Of a DNA stretch of 64,000 nt, positions 2,127 to 50,087 are shown piece after piece (position 1 is the stretch's first letter; each line of letters begins with the position of its first letter). Source of the DNA: Octopus vulgaris. Its lineage: Eukaryota. The notes under the pieces were generated by a model that was not told the DNA's origin, searched no databases, and saw only the letters and a program-made list of their open reading frames with translations. Location of the stretch: the NCBI GenBank assembly GCA_951406725.2, contig OX597815.1:108438001-108502000 (forward strand), written 5' to 3'. Made by a program: the position numbers and the translations under genes.

Positions 2127-2159
<33 letters not shown>

Positions 2160-2321
2160 TTATCGCCATACTAATATGGCATTCTTATAAAAATAAGAAT
2201 AAAGCTGTCCGCTTATTAGCTCCATGAGGCCATCGCCTTAAGTTAGCTATTTGATACACAAACTGTATCCATATAACCTTCGAACAAGGGAGGTCAGTTG
2301 CTCCATACTACTTGACCGGCA

Positions 2322-2363
2322 GCTACAGACGCGTTTCGGGGTATTGCCCCTTTTCAATGCAGC
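2322..2363 (-). ncRNA. Minimal type I hammerhead ribozyme motif, U3-A8 variant (copy 1)
   Basis: Reverse complement reads gctgca TTGAAAA gggg caata cccc GAAA cgcg TC tgtagc. Confidence 0.7.
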
Positions 2364-2684
2364 GTAGCCAGACCAGTAGGTGTCGCTTCTGACAATCTCT
2401 GTTCGAAGGTTTTATTTATCTAGCTTCGGTGGAATACATCCACTTGTTTTCAATAATAGAAATATTAAAATTACTAAGTCTCTCTAAAAGAGAACAACGG
2501 CAGCGTTCCCGGAAAATAATAGTTATCGCCATACTAATATGGCATTCTTATAAAAATAAGAATAAAGCTGTCCGCTTATTAGCTCCATGAGGCCATCGCC
2601 TTAAGTTAGCTATTTGATACACAAACTGTATCCATATAACCTTCGAACAAGGGAGGTCAGTCGCTCCACACTACTTGACCGGCA

Positions 2685-2726
2685 GCTACAGACGCGTTTC
2701 GGGGTATTGCCCCTTTTCAATGCAGC
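2685..2726 (-). ncRNA. Minimal type I hammerhead ribozyme motif, U3-A8 variant (copy 2)
   Basis: Same motif as copy 1, offset by 363 bp. Confidence 0.7.
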
Positions 2727-2812
2727 GTAGCCAGACCAGTAGGTGTCGCTTCTGACAATCTCTGTTCGAAGGTTTTATTTACCTAGCTTCGGTGGAATAC
2801 TGGTCTGGCTAC

Positions 2813-2854
2813 GCTGCATTGAAAAGGGGCAATACCCCGAAACGCGTCTGTAGC
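2813..2854 (+). ncRNA. Minimal type I hammerhead ribozyme motif, U3-A8 variant (copy 3, inverted)
   Basis: Stem I gctgca/tgtagc, core TTGAAAA, stem II gggg/cccc, GAAA, palindromic stem III acgcgt, GUC cleavage triplet. Confidence 0.7.
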
Positions 2855-3119
2855 TGCCGGTCAAGTAGTGTGGAGCGACTGACCTCCCTTGTTCGAAGGT
2901 TATATGGATACAGTTTGTGTATCAAATAGCTAACTTAAGGCGATGGCCTCATGGAGCTAATAAGCGGACAGCTTTATTCATATTTTTATAAGAATGCCAT
3001 ATTAGTATGGCGATAACTATTATTTTCCGGGAAAGCTGCCGTTGTTCTCTTTTAGAGAGACTTAGTAATTTTAATATTTCTATTATATATATATATATAC
3101 ATATACATATACATATATA

Positions 3120-3925
3120 TCATCATCATCATTTAACGTCCGCTTTCCATGCTAGCATGGGTTGGACGGTTCAACTGGGGTCTGGGGAGCCCGAAAGCTG
3201 CACCAGTCCAGTCAGATCTGGCAGTGTTTCTACAGCTGGATGCCCTTCCTAACGCCAACCACTCCGAGAGTGTAGTGGGTGATTTTATGTGCCACCGACA
3301 CAGGTGCCAGACGAGGCTGGCAAACGGCCACACTCGGATGGTGTTTTTTATGTGCCACCGACACAGGTGCCAGACGAGGCTGGCAGACGGCCACGCTCGG
3401 ATGGTGTTTTTATGTGCCACCGACACAGGTGCCAGATGAGGCTGGCAAACGGCCACGATCGGATGGTGTTTGTTACGTGCCCACAGCACGGAGGCCAGTC
3501 GATGCGGTACTGGCTACGGCCACGTTCGGATGGTTCTCTTGTGTGCCACGTGCCACCGGCACTGGTACCACAAAGATACAAATTCCATTGATGTTCATCT
3601 ATTTTGATTTGTTTTGATTTTGATTTTCACTTGCCTCAACAGGTCTTCACAAGTGTCACAAGAAGGAAGGTATGCACAGGTGGACTGACTACGTCCCAGG
3701 TAGGGTCCACAGGTTATGGCCTGACTAGTCTTGCCGGGTCTTCGGATGGTGTTTTTATGTGCCACCGACACAGGTGCCAGATGAGGCTGGCGAACGGCCA
3801 CGATCGGATGGTGTTTGTTACGTGCCCACAGCACGGAGGCCAGTCGGTGCGGTACTGGCTACGGCCACGTTCGGATGGTTTTCTTGTGTGCCACCGGCAC
3901 TGGTACCACAAGATACAATTCCATT
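3120..3925 (-). mobile_element. RTE-type LINE 3' UTR with internal ~62-bp tandem repeats
   Basis: (CAT)n ttaacgtccgctttccatgctagcatgggttgg tail; repeated unit tttatgtgccaccgacacaggtgccagacgaggctggc; about 3400-3590 is duplicated at about 3745-3925. Confidence 0.75.
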
Positions 3926-3929
3926 AATG

Positions 3930-3962
<33 letters not shown>

Positions 3963-7436: not shown

Positions 7437-8330
7437 GAAAATATTTCTAACAAATACACATGTATATGCACACTAAATTACAGACAGAATAAATTTGCTC
7501 TCTAAGTCAACTCCTTGAGGATTAATAATGTTATTGAATTTATAATTAATATTGTGATTTTGTAAATTATTTTACGTAACAGTTTAGATATTGTCCTTAT
7601 CATAAAAGCTAATAATTATTTCCACCATCATCACAATCACCACCAGTGTCGCCATAACCACCTGTCTTTCTGTCAGTATTACCTTAGCACAGCAGCACCA
7701 TCACCACCACCATCAGCACAGCAGCATCATCACCTCAGCACAGTAGCACCATCACCACCACCATCATTGCCACTGCCACTGTCACTGTCCCCACCACCAC
7801 CACCACCACCACCACCACCACCACCACTCATTTCATTTCCTTCAAGACTGATAGAATAAATCACCTTCTGTGCCGTTCTTTCTCTTTTCTTTCTTTCTTT
7901 CCTATGCTTCTTCTCCGTCTCCCTGTCTGTCTGTCTGTCATTCTTTCTCTATCTTTTCGCCATCTCTGTCTCTGACTCTCTCTCTCTCTCTCTCTCTCTC
8001 CTTCTCTCTCCCACCATTGCTCTTCAGTCCTTATACATGGTTTTGTTCTTCATAACCATTAACATTTTTGAAAAGAAACTGAAGATTCAGGCTTGAAAGA
8101 GGAGAACAAACAGAGTGGAATTGAAATGAAATGAAATGAAAGTAGATGACAATGCAGACAGGTCAGTCTCTAACATCAGATAATTACTGGCCAAAAATCA
8201 TTAACAAAAATGCATCATATAAATAAGAGAACCCAGAAGCCTGTGAAACAATCTCTGTCTCTATGGAATATTTCTTGCAAATATATTTGTTTTCTAACTG
8301 CAGAACTATCACCCATGTTCTTATAATAAT

Positions 8331-8783
8331 CCTTTCTACTGAAGGCACAAGGCCTTGAAATTTTGTGGGAAGGGGACTAGTTGATTACATTGACTCCAGT
8401 ATGCAACTGGTACTTAATTTATCAACCCCCAAAAGGACAAAAGGCAAAGTCAACCTCTGCGGAATTTGAACTCGGAACGTAATGGTAGATGAAATGTTAC
8501 TAAGCATTTCGCCTGGCATGCTAATGATTCTGACAGCTCAGTGCCTTCACCATTCTTATAATAATCCTTTCTATTATAGGCAAAAGGCCAGAAATTTGTG
8601 GGGAGAGAGTAAGTCGATTACATTGACTCCAGTATGCAACTAACTGGTACTTAATTTATCGACCCCAAAAGGATGAAGTGCAAAGTCGATCTTGGCAGAA
8701 TATAAACTCAGTCCATAACGACAGATGACATGTCGCTAAGCATTTCACCTGGCATGCTAACAACTCTGCCAGCTCACCTCCTT
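8331..8783 (-). mobile_element. Two head-to-tail copies of SINE family B
   Basis: 8331-8547 and 8566-8783 are each homologous to 13848-14061; ttcttataataat occurs before, between and after them. Confidence 0.8.
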
Positions 8784-9179
8784 CACCTTTCTTATAATAA
8801 TGCCATGACAGAATGTCCTAGATTTGTAAACTATTACAACGTGACATATATTCTATTGATGTACGCTATCACTATCATAAACATTAATGAGTCTTTTAGC
8901 ACGTGTCAGCAGCAACAAACACATCCTTCCTCTCTGCACAAAACTGTCATTCCATTCTGACAATCTCTCTCTCTCTCTTTCACTCTCTTTTTCTTTCTTT
9001 TTTTCTTTCTTTGTTTTTCTCCCCCTCTCTCTATCTCTCTCTGCTTCCTCTCTATATCACCTCTTCATCACCTCATTCCCCACCACCTCGCTCTCTCTCT
9101 CTCTCTCTCCCACCTCGCCCATATTCTAGCTGCATTGCCATACATGTGAGCAGTGAACATCTATTGTCAAACGCATAGC

Positions 9180-19722: not shown

Positions 19723-19774
19723 GACATATATCTATATGTACATATATATATATGTGCATATATACAAATATATC

Positions 19775-19945
19775 ATCATCATCATTTAATGTCCATTGTC
19801 CATATTGGCGTGAGTTGGATGGTTTGACTGGGCTGGCATGCTGGAAGGCTGCGCCAGACTCCAGTCTGATTTGGCATGGTTTTCTATGGCTGGTTGCCCT
19901 TCCTAATGCCAACCACTCCAAGAGTGTAATGAGTGCTTTCATGTG
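19775..19945 (-). mobile_element. RTE-type 3' tail fragment, abutting the CR1-like LINE
   Basis: Close match to 18290-18470. Confidence 0.75.
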
Positions 19946-21497
19946 CAAACGAGCCCTTGCAAAACCGCTACAGCTTCTTTTTCAGAGCTTTCTTGCAAGT
20001 AGTAAGCTCCCAGTCAAATTGAAAGAAGGGGTAATATGCCCTATCAATAAGGGAGGAAGCAGAGCAGATGCTAAAAATTATAGGCCTATCTCTCTGACCT
20101 CACAGATCAGCAAAGTCATGGAACGAATAGTCCGTAAGAAACTAATCATGTTCCTTGAAGAAAATGACTTGCTGACTGACACCCAGCATGAATTTCGACC
20201 AGGTAGAAGCTGCCTAACACAGCTCCTGCAACACTATGACTGGGTGTTAAAACAGCTACTAAATGGCTCAAATGTATGGTCTGTCACAAACCGCATGGTA
20301 TTGGCATAGGCGGAAAACTTGGAGAGTGGCTGCACAACTTCCTAAAAGATGGAAGGCAGGCAGTTGTGGCCAATGGAGCCACCACCAAGGAAACACAAAT
20401 AACAAGTGGCGCTCCACAGGGTACTGTCTTGGGGGCCACTGCTGTTCATAGTGGCCCTTTCAGACATGGCTTCAGATACTAAGATGGCCACCCTTGCTAG
20501 CTATGCAGATGAGACAAAAGTCTCCTACACAATACAAAACCCTGGAAATAATGAACAATTTGTAACGGGAGTTGGATACAATATACAGGTGGGCTGAGGA
20601 CAACAACATGCAGTTTAATGCAGGAAATTTCCAGGCCCTACGCTACCAGCACACAAAGGTAAACGACATGCAGACTGGATACACTGGCCCGGGAAGAATT
20701 GTAATTCCCTAGTCAAAATCAGTGCGTGACCTGGGCATTGACATGAGCAATGATGCATCTTTCCAAGTGCATATTACTAATTTGGTGATAAAACGCAGAT
20801 GGCTAGCTGGATGGATTCTCTGAACTTTCAGAACAAGAGAGAAGGAGACACTGATGGTCCTTTGGAAAACATTCATCCTCAGCCGCTTGGACTACTGCTC
20901 CCAACTATGGTCACCACACAATATAAAGCTAACAGCAGAACTCGAAGCAATCCAACGAAGCTAAACTAAGAAGATCGTCTCAATACAACATATCAGCTAC
21001 TGGTAAAGACTGAAAGTATTAAAACTCTTCTCCCTGGAGTGAAGGCAGGAGAGATATGCAATGATATACATCTGGAAAATCCTGGAGTGTCTTGTCCCAA
21101 ACTTTGGCATTCAAAGTTACCCCAACCGCAGAACAGGGCGCCACTGCATGGTGCTAAAGATTCCAACATCGCCATCAAAATACAGGACCAGATACTGCAA
21201 CAGCTTGGGTTTCAGAGGACTACAGCTCTTCAACATCCTCCCTAAATGCCTGAGAGACCTGAATGGTGTAGATGTGGGTTCCTTTAAAACTAAACTGGTT
21301 CTCTTCTTGTCGGGGGTCCCAGATGAACCTACCTCTCGGCAGGAAACACAGATGCAGGCAGCGGCATCGAACTCCCTTGTTGATCAAGTGCCATATATCA
21401 GAGGTGGTTTCACATACTAGTGTAGTTCATTCAATGGTGGTGCCCCAGCATGGCCGCAGCCTTCGGGCTGAAACATTTTTAAGGATTTAAGGATTTA
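19941..21497 (+). pseudogene. 5'-truncated CR1/L2-group LINE ORF2 (reverse transcriptase) with 3' tail
   Basis: KPLQLLFQSFL, KGGSRADAKNYRPISLTS, QHEFRPGRSCLTQLL, SGAPQGTVLG, YADETK, RDLGI, SRLDYCSQLWSP; stops and frameshifts; ends in a stem-loop plus (ttaagga) repeats. Confidence 0.88.
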
Positions 21498-41495: not shown

Positions 41496-41542
41496 TACAT
41501 ATATATATGTATGTGTATATATATATATATATATATTTATAT

Positions 41543-42250
41543 ATAGAGGGCATTATACATACATGCCAAATGCTAAGAGGGACAATTAGTCATTTCTACC
41601 AAAAATATTACTAATCCCACCGAATGCAATTTTTCAAAGTAAGACATTTAAAAAATATAGACCTGTATCACAGTGATTTCATACTTACGTACTCATCAGC
41701 AGGCCTGAATGCATTATAAATAAACAACGACCCTGCCCCGCTTAAGTCGATCAGCTAACTGTTCAACATCAACGAAGCACATGGGTGAGTTTACATATAT
41801 TTCATCCGGTCAAATGGCAAACTTTTACGAATTGCATTTCGGGAGAGGAAAAGTTTTTTCGGAATAAAAATTTAGCAATTAAGGACAACTACTTAATAAG
41901 GAAAACTTAACAAGAAATTGTCAGGTAGATAGCGTAAAAACCTCATAAGAGAAAAAATTTCGAAAATAATTATTTCTTATTGAACATATTAATTTATATA
42001 TAGAGGGCATTATACATACATGCCAGAAGGCATTATACATACATGCCAAACGCTAAGAGGGACAATTAGTCATTTCTACCAAAAATATTACTAATCCCAC
42101 CGAATGCAATTTTTCAAAGTAAGACATTTAAAAAATATAGACCTGTATCACAGTGATTTCATACATTTTTTCTCTTATGAGGTTTTTACGCTATCTACCT
42201 GACAATTTCTTGTTAAGTTTTCCTTATTAAGTAGTTGTCCTTAATTGCTA
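41543..42250. mobile_element. Penelope-like terminal cassette (direct plus inverted repeats) inside (TA)n
   Basis: 41543-41685 is repeated at about 42001-42165; about 41873-41958 is inverted at about 42166-42250; contains a canonical hammerhead. Confidence 0.75.
41662..41703 (-). ncRNA. Type I hammerhead ribozyme motif with canonical core
   Basis: Reverse complement reads cctg CTGATGA gtac gtaa gtat GAAA tcac t gtga TA cagg. Confidence 0.82.
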
Positions 42251-48439: not shown

Positions 48440-50087
48440 CAATGTAAACCAAATGTCATACATTGAGGCTCAAATAACCAAATAGAGAGATACAGGAAAT
48501 TCAAGATGGGTACTGGAAACTGGACTATATATGCAGAAAGTAATGAGTAAAGAAGTAAGAAAAAGATGGCCAGCAATAAAAGACACCAAAAGAAGGAATC
48601 TATGACAAATGACTAGGAAAGTTGATTCTGTTATCAGTAGGATAGATACTAAAATTATAGAAGACACTAACTTATTGATCTATGCAGGAGTAGTAGTTAT
48701 CAGGAGATTAGATATCTCACAGGGAAAGATTGAAAAAGAGCAAATGTGAAAAAGGAGACTACAAAATAAAGTGAATATCTTAAGACAATATAAGCCAGGA
48801 AAACAAACAAGTTAGGAAACACAAGAGGCAAATTTTGCCTCGAGGAAAGATACTTAGTCAAAGAGAAAGGATTTGGGATAATAATAGAAGAGTTGAAACA
48901 GCGTATCATAACAGTAGCAAGCAAGCTGTTCAGATATCAGAGAAGAATAGATCATTATCAACAGAATAGATTATTTGTGACAGAGCAGAGGAGATTTTAA
49001 AACCAAATAAATAGTGGAGAACGAAGTACTGAAGATGAGAAACCTAATGCAGAAGAAGTTAGAAAGTTCTGAAGTAATATTTGGGATAAACCAGTCGATC
49101 ATAATGGAGATGAAGTATGGTTAAACAAATTGAGGGAAGAAGTAGTGAGTGAGAAGCAGCCAGATTTAAGATTAACTAGTGAATTAATGAGTAAAGTGTT
49201 AGGAAAATGCTGAATTGGAAGGACCCAGGACGAGATTTAGTTCAAGGGTACTGGCTAAAGAGATTTAGTAGTTTACATAGGAGGCTGAGGAAACAACTTC
49301 AGGATTGCCTTAATGGAGGAATGATACCAGTTTGGATGACTACAGAGAGGACAATACTCATCATGAAAGATAAGAGCAAGGGTAATACAGCTAGCAACTA
49401 TAGACCAATCATTTGCTTACCATCAGCGTAGAAGCTGTTAATATGAATGCTTTCAGAAAGCATTTATGAGCGCCTTGACAACCTGAATTTACTACCAGAA
49501 GAACAGAAAGGTTGCAGGAAGAACTCTAGAGAAATGCATGATCTATCATATATAGACAAAGCAGTTCTAAATGAAGTAAAAGCTAGAAAGAAAAATCTAA
49601 CAATAACATGGATAGATTATAGGAAAGCCTATGACATGATCCCACACTCATGGATAAGTGAATGTTTGAGTATAATCAGTATAACAGACAACATAAGAGA
49701 ATTAATTAGCTTTAGCATGAAGAAATGGAAAGTAGATCTCTACTCAGGTGAGACACTCTTAGTGAAAGCTAATATCAAAAGAGGAATTTTCCAGAGGGCC
49801 TCGTTATCCCCTTTAATATTTGTCTTATAGTTGATCCTCCTCAGTTTAGGAAGGCAAAGGCAGGGTTTCAATTCAGAAGTAGTAATGGAAAAATTAACCA
49901 TTTGTGCTACATGGATGATCTGAAGCTTTTTAGTAAGAATGAAAAAGAGATAGCCATGGAATTTGACATAGATAAGTGTGCAATATTAGTAATACGAAGG
50001 GAACAGGTAGTCAACAGCAAAGGCATCCAAATACCAGATGACCAGACATTAAAATCACTGAAAGAAGGAAAGAGTATGAAAATCTGA
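48440..50087 (+). pseudogene. R4/Dong-like LINE reverse transcriptase region, decayed
   Basis: NWKDPGRDLVQGYWLK, NYRPIICLP, EEQKGC, WIDYRKAYDMIPHSWI, KRGIFQRASLSPLIF, HLCYMDDLKLF; several stops. Confidence 0.88.

Follow-up and report, generated by a model that had tools for sequence, protein, structure and literature searches.

The route by which animal retrozymes return to the genome is an open question, and the locus described here carries a footprint that addresses it. Sequence comparison in the window (the whole 64-kb stretch of DNA that was analysed) revealed a block of about 930 bases between (TA)n tracts, in which three hammerhead copies stand in tandem-plus-inverted order. What kind of element is this, and how did it come to lie there? 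We consider it likely that the block goes back to one recent insertion of a 363-nt retrozyme, non-coding and present in many copies, and that the RT and endonuclease of a Penelope-like element (PLE) probably wrote it into a TA microsatellite. The window as a whole is of animal type, with 27-46% GC in 2-kb bins and dense in microsatellites, and its repeats may resemble those of cephalopods; in the descriptor scan the 363-nt family was present in it only at 2155-3086.

Layout of the block

The features of the block are as follows.

2128..2154, no strand: left (TA)n target tract, adjoining the first 3' end (TRF array 2063-2158)
2155..2800, minus: long arm, 646 nt or 1.78 head-to-tail units, read from 2800 to 2155 (sequence self-comparison)
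2322..2363, minus: hammerhead 1, type I (motif 2357-2328; U3 at 2357, A8 at 2352; predicted cut 2328/2327)
2328..2690, minus: predicted cut-to-cut monomer, 363 nt, ~41% GC, highly self-paired
2453..2517, minus: 65-nt segment between the two family 3' end positions, a candidate PLE-type 'tail'
2685..2726, minus: hammerhead 2, type I (motif 2720-2691; predicted cut 2691/2690)
2798..2800, no strand: head-to-head junction of two 5'-truncated arms, 3-nt overlap TAC
2798..3086, plus: short inverted arm, 289 nt, 5'-truncated at 2798; its 3' end at 3086 is unit position 2453
2813..2854, plus: hammerhead 3, type I (motif 2819-2848; U3 at 2819; predicted cut after 2848)
3087..3120, no strand: right TA-rich microsatellite tract, adjoining the second 3' end

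The direct copies (2155-2437 and 2518-2800) are 283 nt each with a spacing of 363, and differ at three positions (2299/2662, 2306/2669 and 2419/2782). The inverted arms (2453-2741 and 2798-3086) are 289 nt long with 56 nt between them and two mismatches (2505/3034 and 2559/2980). A first reading made from the letters alone (hereafter the sequence-only reading) had described two direct copies 363 bp apart plus an inverted copy with arms of ~290 bp; the spacing and the arms stand, but the tandem holds 1.78 units and not two whole ones. Its further claim that the structure is young agrees with the private changes between the arms, which number 5 in 935 nt. The three that fall in the left copy (2299, 2306 and 2419) are all C-to-T on the plus strand, one of them at a CpG. 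The plus strand would be the first cDNA strand of the long arm, and three such changes are too few to call cDNA deamination.

The long arm is 5'-truncated at 2800 and has its 3' end at 2155, which is unit position 2518. Both outer ends of the block are thus 3' ends of the hammerhead strand, abutting (TA)n. In unit coordinates the two ends are 65 nt apart, 2518 being 173 nt and 2453 being 238 nt downstream of the predicted cut, and the inverted copy of the 65-nt segment is found at 3022-3086. No target-site duplication is readable within the (TA)n, and self-comparison of the window found the flanking DNA without duplication at the block. Both arms cross the predicted cut site unbroken, the long arm twice. 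We rejected a MITE or DNA transposon, since each inverted arm repeats part of the tandem unit and is no terminal repeat.

Three identical hammerheads with a U3-A8 core

The three motifs of the block are identical, with a helix I of 6 bp, the core UUGAAAA (carrying U3 and A8), GAAA and a GUC triplet. Helix II consists of four G-C pairs closed by a 5-nt loop 2, an internal loop lies beyond the 6 bp of helix I, and helix III is the perfect palindrome ACGCGU, suited to a double hammerhead in line with the earlier suggestion that this palindrome suits dimer formation. In hammerhead 2, helix I is formed by 2726-2721/2690-2685, the core by 2720-2714, helix II by 2713-2710/2704-2701, GAAA by 2700-2697 and the palindrome by 2697-2692, and helix I resumes beyond the internal loop (2734-2730/2683-2679); the coordinates of hammerhead 1 are those of hammerhead 2 minus 363. 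The core (YUGANRA...GAAA...NUH), the Watson-Crick pairing of positions 3 and 8 and the presence of three helices correspond to a type I hammerhead, and the 6 bp of helix I, the 4 bp of helix II and the short palindromic helix III to its canonical form, for which the sizes were taken from Cervera 2014 (PMC4209133).

We applied a descriptor scan to both strands of the 64-kb window and obtained four type I sites, namely the three block motifs and one on the minus strand at 41699-41666. The chance control gave no sites in 60 of 60 resampled windows at a 6-bp helix I, and a mean of 0.1 at 4 bp, which substantiates the claim of three hammerheads with the same motif in each copy. Rfam, on the other hand, returned no matches at the gathering level in the whole window, and even with E allowed up to 10 it listed no hammerhead family for 2155-3086 or for the element at 41535-42250. 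It should be noted that this blank is uninformative for the block, because the canonical C3-G8 motif at 41699 was missed too. A match to mir-1303 in Rfam (25.7 bits versus 107) is the inversion itself, and a miRNA hairpin was rejected.

The canonical metazoan hammerhead is described as having a helix I of 6 bp, a helix II of 4 bp and a helix III of 1-2 bp with a palindromic loop, and the minimal PLE-type motif as having a helix II of 7-8 bp (Cervera 2014, PMC4209133). The U3-A8 pair is a natural hammerhead variant reported as active in vitro (Perreault 2011, PMC3088659), and it was counted ~1,300 times among Schistosoma PLE-type motifs (Cervera 2014, PMC4209133). The proposal that C3U and G8A together make a compensated pair is borne out by U3-A8 in all three motifs, and the block shows the same covariation of the 3-8 core pair as the hammerheads of Perreault 2011 and the Cercyon-related ones of Schistosoma (Cervera 2014). 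The Schistosoma cases, however, come from a search built on minimal motifs and are described as mostly single, whereas the block has the canonical 6+4-bp motif in a tandem unit. The U3-A8 pair, the palindromic helix III and the tandem-plus-inverted layout have each been published before, so that taken alone the locus is no surprise.

The 363-nt unit as a probable retrozyme

Following published descriptions, we looked for a tandem non-coding unit of ~150-450 bp with less than 50% GC, a hammerhead in at least two consecutive units, and no LTR or ORF. The unit found here is 363 nt long with 40-41% GC, has two tandem hammerheads and no ORF, is multicopy and dispersed, and gives a self-paired monomer. 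Read as a circle, its longest frame from an ATG has 38 codons and its longest stop-free frame 65; an autonomous PLE was ruled out, as the unit is without an RT and GIY-YIG ORF.

Non-LTR retrozymes were defined, and their RNA circles reported from coral, mussel and axolotl, in Cervera 2020 (PMC7229834), where PLEs are named as candidate mobilisers. The unit resembles these elements in size (within 170-400 nt; 350-390 in mussel), in GC below 45%, in carrying one canonical type I hammerhead per unit with a weak palindromic helix III, in its self-paired monomer and in its very high copy number. It is unlike them in the U3-A8 core, apparently fixed in the family, the inverted head-to-head copy and the two offset 3' ends. 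In the main text of PMC7229834 the word 'inverted' occurs 0 times, and in that of the Li 2026 preprint (10.64898/2026.07.22.740005) it occurs only in a reference title and 'tail' 0 times. We found no account of the 363-nt family, or of inverted, tailed retrozyme insertions, in the literature searched, although supplements, figures, Repbase and Dfam may contain the family or U3-A8 motifs of the canonical form. Judged by its sequence, the unit is probably best classed as a new family member among the animal non-LTR retrozymes, one whose insertion bears a footprint of PLE type.

Folding predictions for the monomer and for read-through RNA

The two minus-strand ribozymes had been suggested to release a 363-nt monomer, and the predicted cuts at 2691/2690 and 2328/2327 would indeed bound one of exactly that length. 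The linear monomer, which is rich in small hairpins, folds at -123.2 kcal/mol (z -6.55), with none of 100 shuffles as stable, and the circular one at -118.2 (z -5.7). When the sense arm is folded by itself, both of its hammerheads form helices I and II (P 0.98-0.99), and the ensemble probability of helix III is 0. The double hammerhead comes out 3.9 kcal/mol less stable than a pair of open monomers, in a model that leaves tertiary contacts aside. Self-cleavage, as modelled, is uncertain. Of the Xenopus retrozyme dimers described in Li 2026, 1 of 9 cleaved in vitro and 8 did not.

The picture changes for a read-through RNA, of either strand. Here the two arms pair with each other (P 0.99), the hammerheads that begin at 2720 and 2819 lose helix I (P 0), and hammerhead 1 on the minus strand is the only one left. 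Since arm pairing removes hammerheads 2 and 3, monomer excision and long dsRNA exclude each other on one transcript. The sequence-only reading had proposed both as possible products of a cassette at this locus, with the tandem yielding a 363-nt circle and the hairpin long dsRNA. Some evidence speaks for such a function: two same-strand tandem hammerheads bound exactly 363 nt, the sense arm folds helices I and II as just described, the 289-bp hairpin is very stable, and retrozyme repeats of similar size are reported to yield circles in mussel, coral and axolotl (PMC7229834). Against it, the burial of hammerheads 2 and 3 on read-through means that the monomer needs a transcript that begins within the 56-nt spacer or right at it. 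No evidence points to selection on the locus, which is one of very many copies, and the arrangement is described as an ordinary PLE by-product (Craig 2021, PMC8557442). We thus regard the cassette as very unlikely. That it was purpose-built is contradicted by the layout, which is a standard PLE insertion pattern (PMC8557442, PMC3846280) and is seen again in a second family at a distance of 39 kb. The hairpin is rather a likely by-product of insertion, and according to the folding models it would silence two of the three local ribozymes on read-through RNA.

A high-copy family with a shared 3' end

Of the 24 sequencing runs among the matches listed, 20 contain half or more of the 46 words sampled; they come from 11 studies and carry six organism labels. 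Four of the 24 listed runs (X1, X2, X3 and X12) were compared against a single unit of the block (2385-2747, likeness 85), X1 and X2 being covered to about 76 and 80 in 100. Contigs matching the unit numbered 4,604 in X1, 2,605 in X2 and 1,950 in X3, all DNA runs, and 38 in X12. It should be noted that contigs cannot show strand, ends or circles; no run labelled as RNA was among the matches listed, and 8 matching runs, X12 among them, are only guessed to be RNA. Neither the viral contigs (0 matches) nor the metagenome contigs (0 exact matches) contained the unit. A looser pattern gave 119 metagenome loci from 2 of 64 parts scanned; weak stems were present in 1 of the 119, none matched the unit by blastn, and they were dismissed as chance.

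Loose ends running into TA repeats were found at 2453 in 38 (X1), 15 (X2) and 13 (X3) contigs, and this base is the exact end of the inverted arm. Near 2514-2517 there is a second end, with AT-rich contigs numbering at least 7 in X1 and at least 1 in X3 among the rows listed. Of the two block 3' ends, 65 nt apart, 2453 is thus well supported family-wide and 2514-2518 weakly among those rows. A diverged subfamily, seen in all four runs, differs over ~25 nt (2493-2516) between the two end positions. In three runs there are contigs that extend across 2453 and across 2518, hence other copies of the family are head-to-tail too.

This bridging also bears on whether the arms could belong to an autonomous PLE, as its ends (pLTRs) after 5' truncation, and not to a self-standing, non-autonomous unit. 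Most PLE copies are described as 5'-truncated (Craig 2021, PMC8557442), pairs of opposite-strand hammerheads 100-700 bp apart have been ascribed to truncated PLEs, and U3-A8 has been reported from a PLE family (both Cervera 2014, PMC4209133). The 363-nt unit, however, closes on itself without an ORF, the bridging contigs span both end positions, and the hammerhead is of the canonical 6+4-bp retrozyme form and not the minimal PLE type with its longer helix II. We give this explanation hardly any weight.

None of the 28 variants listed falls in the hammerhead core, and three lie inside the hammerhead fold (two G-C to G-U, one unpaired), so that the U3-A8 core appears fixed in the family as sampled. 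The arms were compared at 16 of the 28 variant rows, and every pairwise comparison found the same allele at the polymorphic sites, 13 of 13. At site 2419 the left copy carries a base almost absent from the family, and the other four arm differences are not among the listed family variants. A block made of one haplotype plus five private changes would fit one young event; this is modest evidence, given the linkage between sites and the fact that contig depth, when summed, does not measure the number of copies.

Strand-changing joints made up 3 of the 12 joints listed (2493/2635 and 2588/2675 in X1, 2565/2711 in X3; orientation not given), with none in X2 or X12. The joint of this locus, 2798-2800, was absent among the 12 listed for the four runs.

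A probable footprint of a Penelope-like insertion

PLE insertions are described as a 5'-truncated partial tandem next to which lies an inverted copy, also truncated; one end bears a tail of 30-40 bp, and the insertions are biased towards microsatellites, (TA)n in the case of Naiads (Craig 2021, PMC8557442). Head-to-head inversions are reported as the commonest, with microhomology at the 5' junction, and were explained by self-priming on an antisense template (Arkhipova 2013, PMC3846280). A PLE protein was reported to nick and extend both strands of AT-rich DNA in vitro and to start at two internal RNA sites that bound the tail; for the Anolis PLE, hammerhead cleavage was unneeded for insertion in vitro and uncut RNA was the main template (Frangieh 2024, PMC11167929).

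The block shows a partial tandem with an adjacent inverted, 5'-truncated, head-to-head copy, an AT/(TA)n microsatellite target, a junction with microhomology and a type I hammerhead, all as in PLE insertions. It differs in being without an RT-endonuclease ORF, in its canonical instead of minimal hammerhead, and in the tail-like segment at one end, which is 65 nt here and 119 nt in the 41535-42250 element, against the published 30-40 bp. The 2020 review (PMC7761336) describes retrozyme repeats as showing no motif that points to a mobilising partner, and in Li 2026 (10.64898/2026.07.22.740005) the link between retrozymes and pLTRs rests on co-occurrence and trees. Where copies of a retrozyme family carry it, the PLE footprint, that is an inverted copy, ends at a fixed offset and a TA target, offers a direct and countable test of PLE mobilisation. 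It also allows a test of circular versus uncut template, and names candidate RNA start sites.

A second, unrelated hammerhead element

The fourth site of the descriptor scan belongs to another element on the same plan.

41535..42250, minus: second hammerhead element, with a partial tandem (42164-41535) of a 480-nt unit and a C3-G8 hammerhead at 41699-41666

The tandem is followed by an adjacent inverted copy of 86 nt (42165-42250) with 0 mismatches, (TA)n lies on both sides, the 3' ends are 119 nt apart, and the upstream copy is 5'-truncated inside helix II. Its joint differs in type from the one at 2798-2800, and its best match to the 363-nt element is 12 nt (E 4.2). The 480-nt unit also folds well (z -5.1, 60 shuffles). 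The hammerhead at 41699-41666 has an AUA triplet, a 4-bp helix III and a G-U at the base of helix II. In the inner unit, 23 nt are duplicated (42002-42048) immediately before the end position, on its upstream side, and the outer copy is without this duplication.

As an unrelated element 39 kb away has the same plan, the layout is not peculiar to the block and does not depend on U3-A8. The 64-kb window contains two hammerhead families, unrelated to each other, with the PLE-type layout, and in one of them an apparently fixed U3-A8 sits in a canonical ribozyme.

With both elements in hand we can weigh two further explanations. The tandem or the inversion could be an assembly or chimeric-read artefact of a high-copy repeat, and such structures are indeed said to trouble assemblies (Craig 2021, PMC8557442); the absence of the 2798-2800 joint from those listed would also agree with this. 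A young polymorphic insertion, however, would be missing elsewhere, and X1 and X2 were covered only in part. The arms differ at 5 private sites, overlap by just 3 nt, leave a 56-nt unpaired centre, and end at family-specific positions with different flanks, and the second element has the same design with another type of joint. We consider the chance of an artefact to be very slight.

Somewhat less improbable, though still unlikely, is a PLE-derived satellite that entered by simple insertion and only then gained its tandem and inversion on DNA, whether by unequal exchange, by fold-back repair or by template switching. Such an origin implies neither an RNA circle nor double priming. Local amplification of pLTR-derived units by unequal crossover has been proposed (Li 2026, 10.64898/2026.07.22.740005), and the richness of the monomer in small hairpins and the low number of strand-changing joints would both suit it. 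The inverted arm, however, ends exactly at the commonest 3' end of the family and at a TA tract of its own, a position that local fold-back would not single out; nor is any flanking DNA duplicated, and the pattern recurs in the unrelated second element.

A possible path from RNA to insertion

Under the favoured reading, of a retrozyme inserted by PLE enzymes, tandem copies elsewhere would be transcribed, and the hammerheads would cut out 363-nt monomers, probably as double hammerheads through the ACGCGU palindrome. A host ligase may then close the monomers into circles, as in other retrozymes. A PLE enzyme would nick both strands of a (TA)n tract and start two cDNAs at two preferred sites 65 nt apart, of which one would have run 646 nt and the other 289 nt. 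Joining of the far cDNA ends via the 3-nt overlap would give the head-to-head inversion.

The arms are unbroken across the cut site, hence the template would have been a circle or an uncut multimer and not a linear monomer already cut; between circle and multimer the data do not decide. Self-priming on an antisense template (Arkhipova 2013, PMC3846280) is an alternative route to the inversion, which by analogy might replace the two cDNAs. A weak point of the PLE-insertion account is that strand-changing joints are few (3 listed) for so large a family.

More tentatively, we suggest that the loci could be frozen products of retrozyme RNA circles copied in trans by a PLE enzyme through double priming, a reading we hold to be possible but on balance doubtful. 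Two cDNAs would then have rolled from two fixed starts through the ligated cut site and joined head-to-head. If double priming is true, the link between retrozymes and PLEs moves from co-occurrence to a mappable mechanism, and the cis-acting start sites are defined.

Other repeats of the window

Pfam was run on 11 of the 70 long ORFs of the window and gave two RVT_1 fragments (19725-20309 and 49447-49830; E about 5e-7). From their sequence these look LINE-like and without a link to the hammerhead elements, and none of the 11 ORFs scanned was an autonomous PLE partner.

An older inverted pair (17065-17301/17485-17716, 88%) has arms that diverge head-to-head, and a TA tract at its left end. Its CUGAAGA strings (minus 17186 and plus 17599) did not fold into a hammerhead and it was rejected as a hammerhead element; possibly the pair is a decayed PLE end. 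A tandem of a 236-nt unit at 8318-8801 (2.1 copies, 80% matches) was without a hammerhead in the descriptor scan.

Close to the block, MITE-like inverted repeat pairs lie at 1250-1416/1693-1862 and 4767-4916/5023-5172, with 81-90% complementarity. Directly to the right of the TA tract, a repeat at 3133-3930 includes a 63-nt minisatellite (3283-3481, 3.2 copies) and a duplicate with a spacing of 345 nt (3397-3595/3742-3931).
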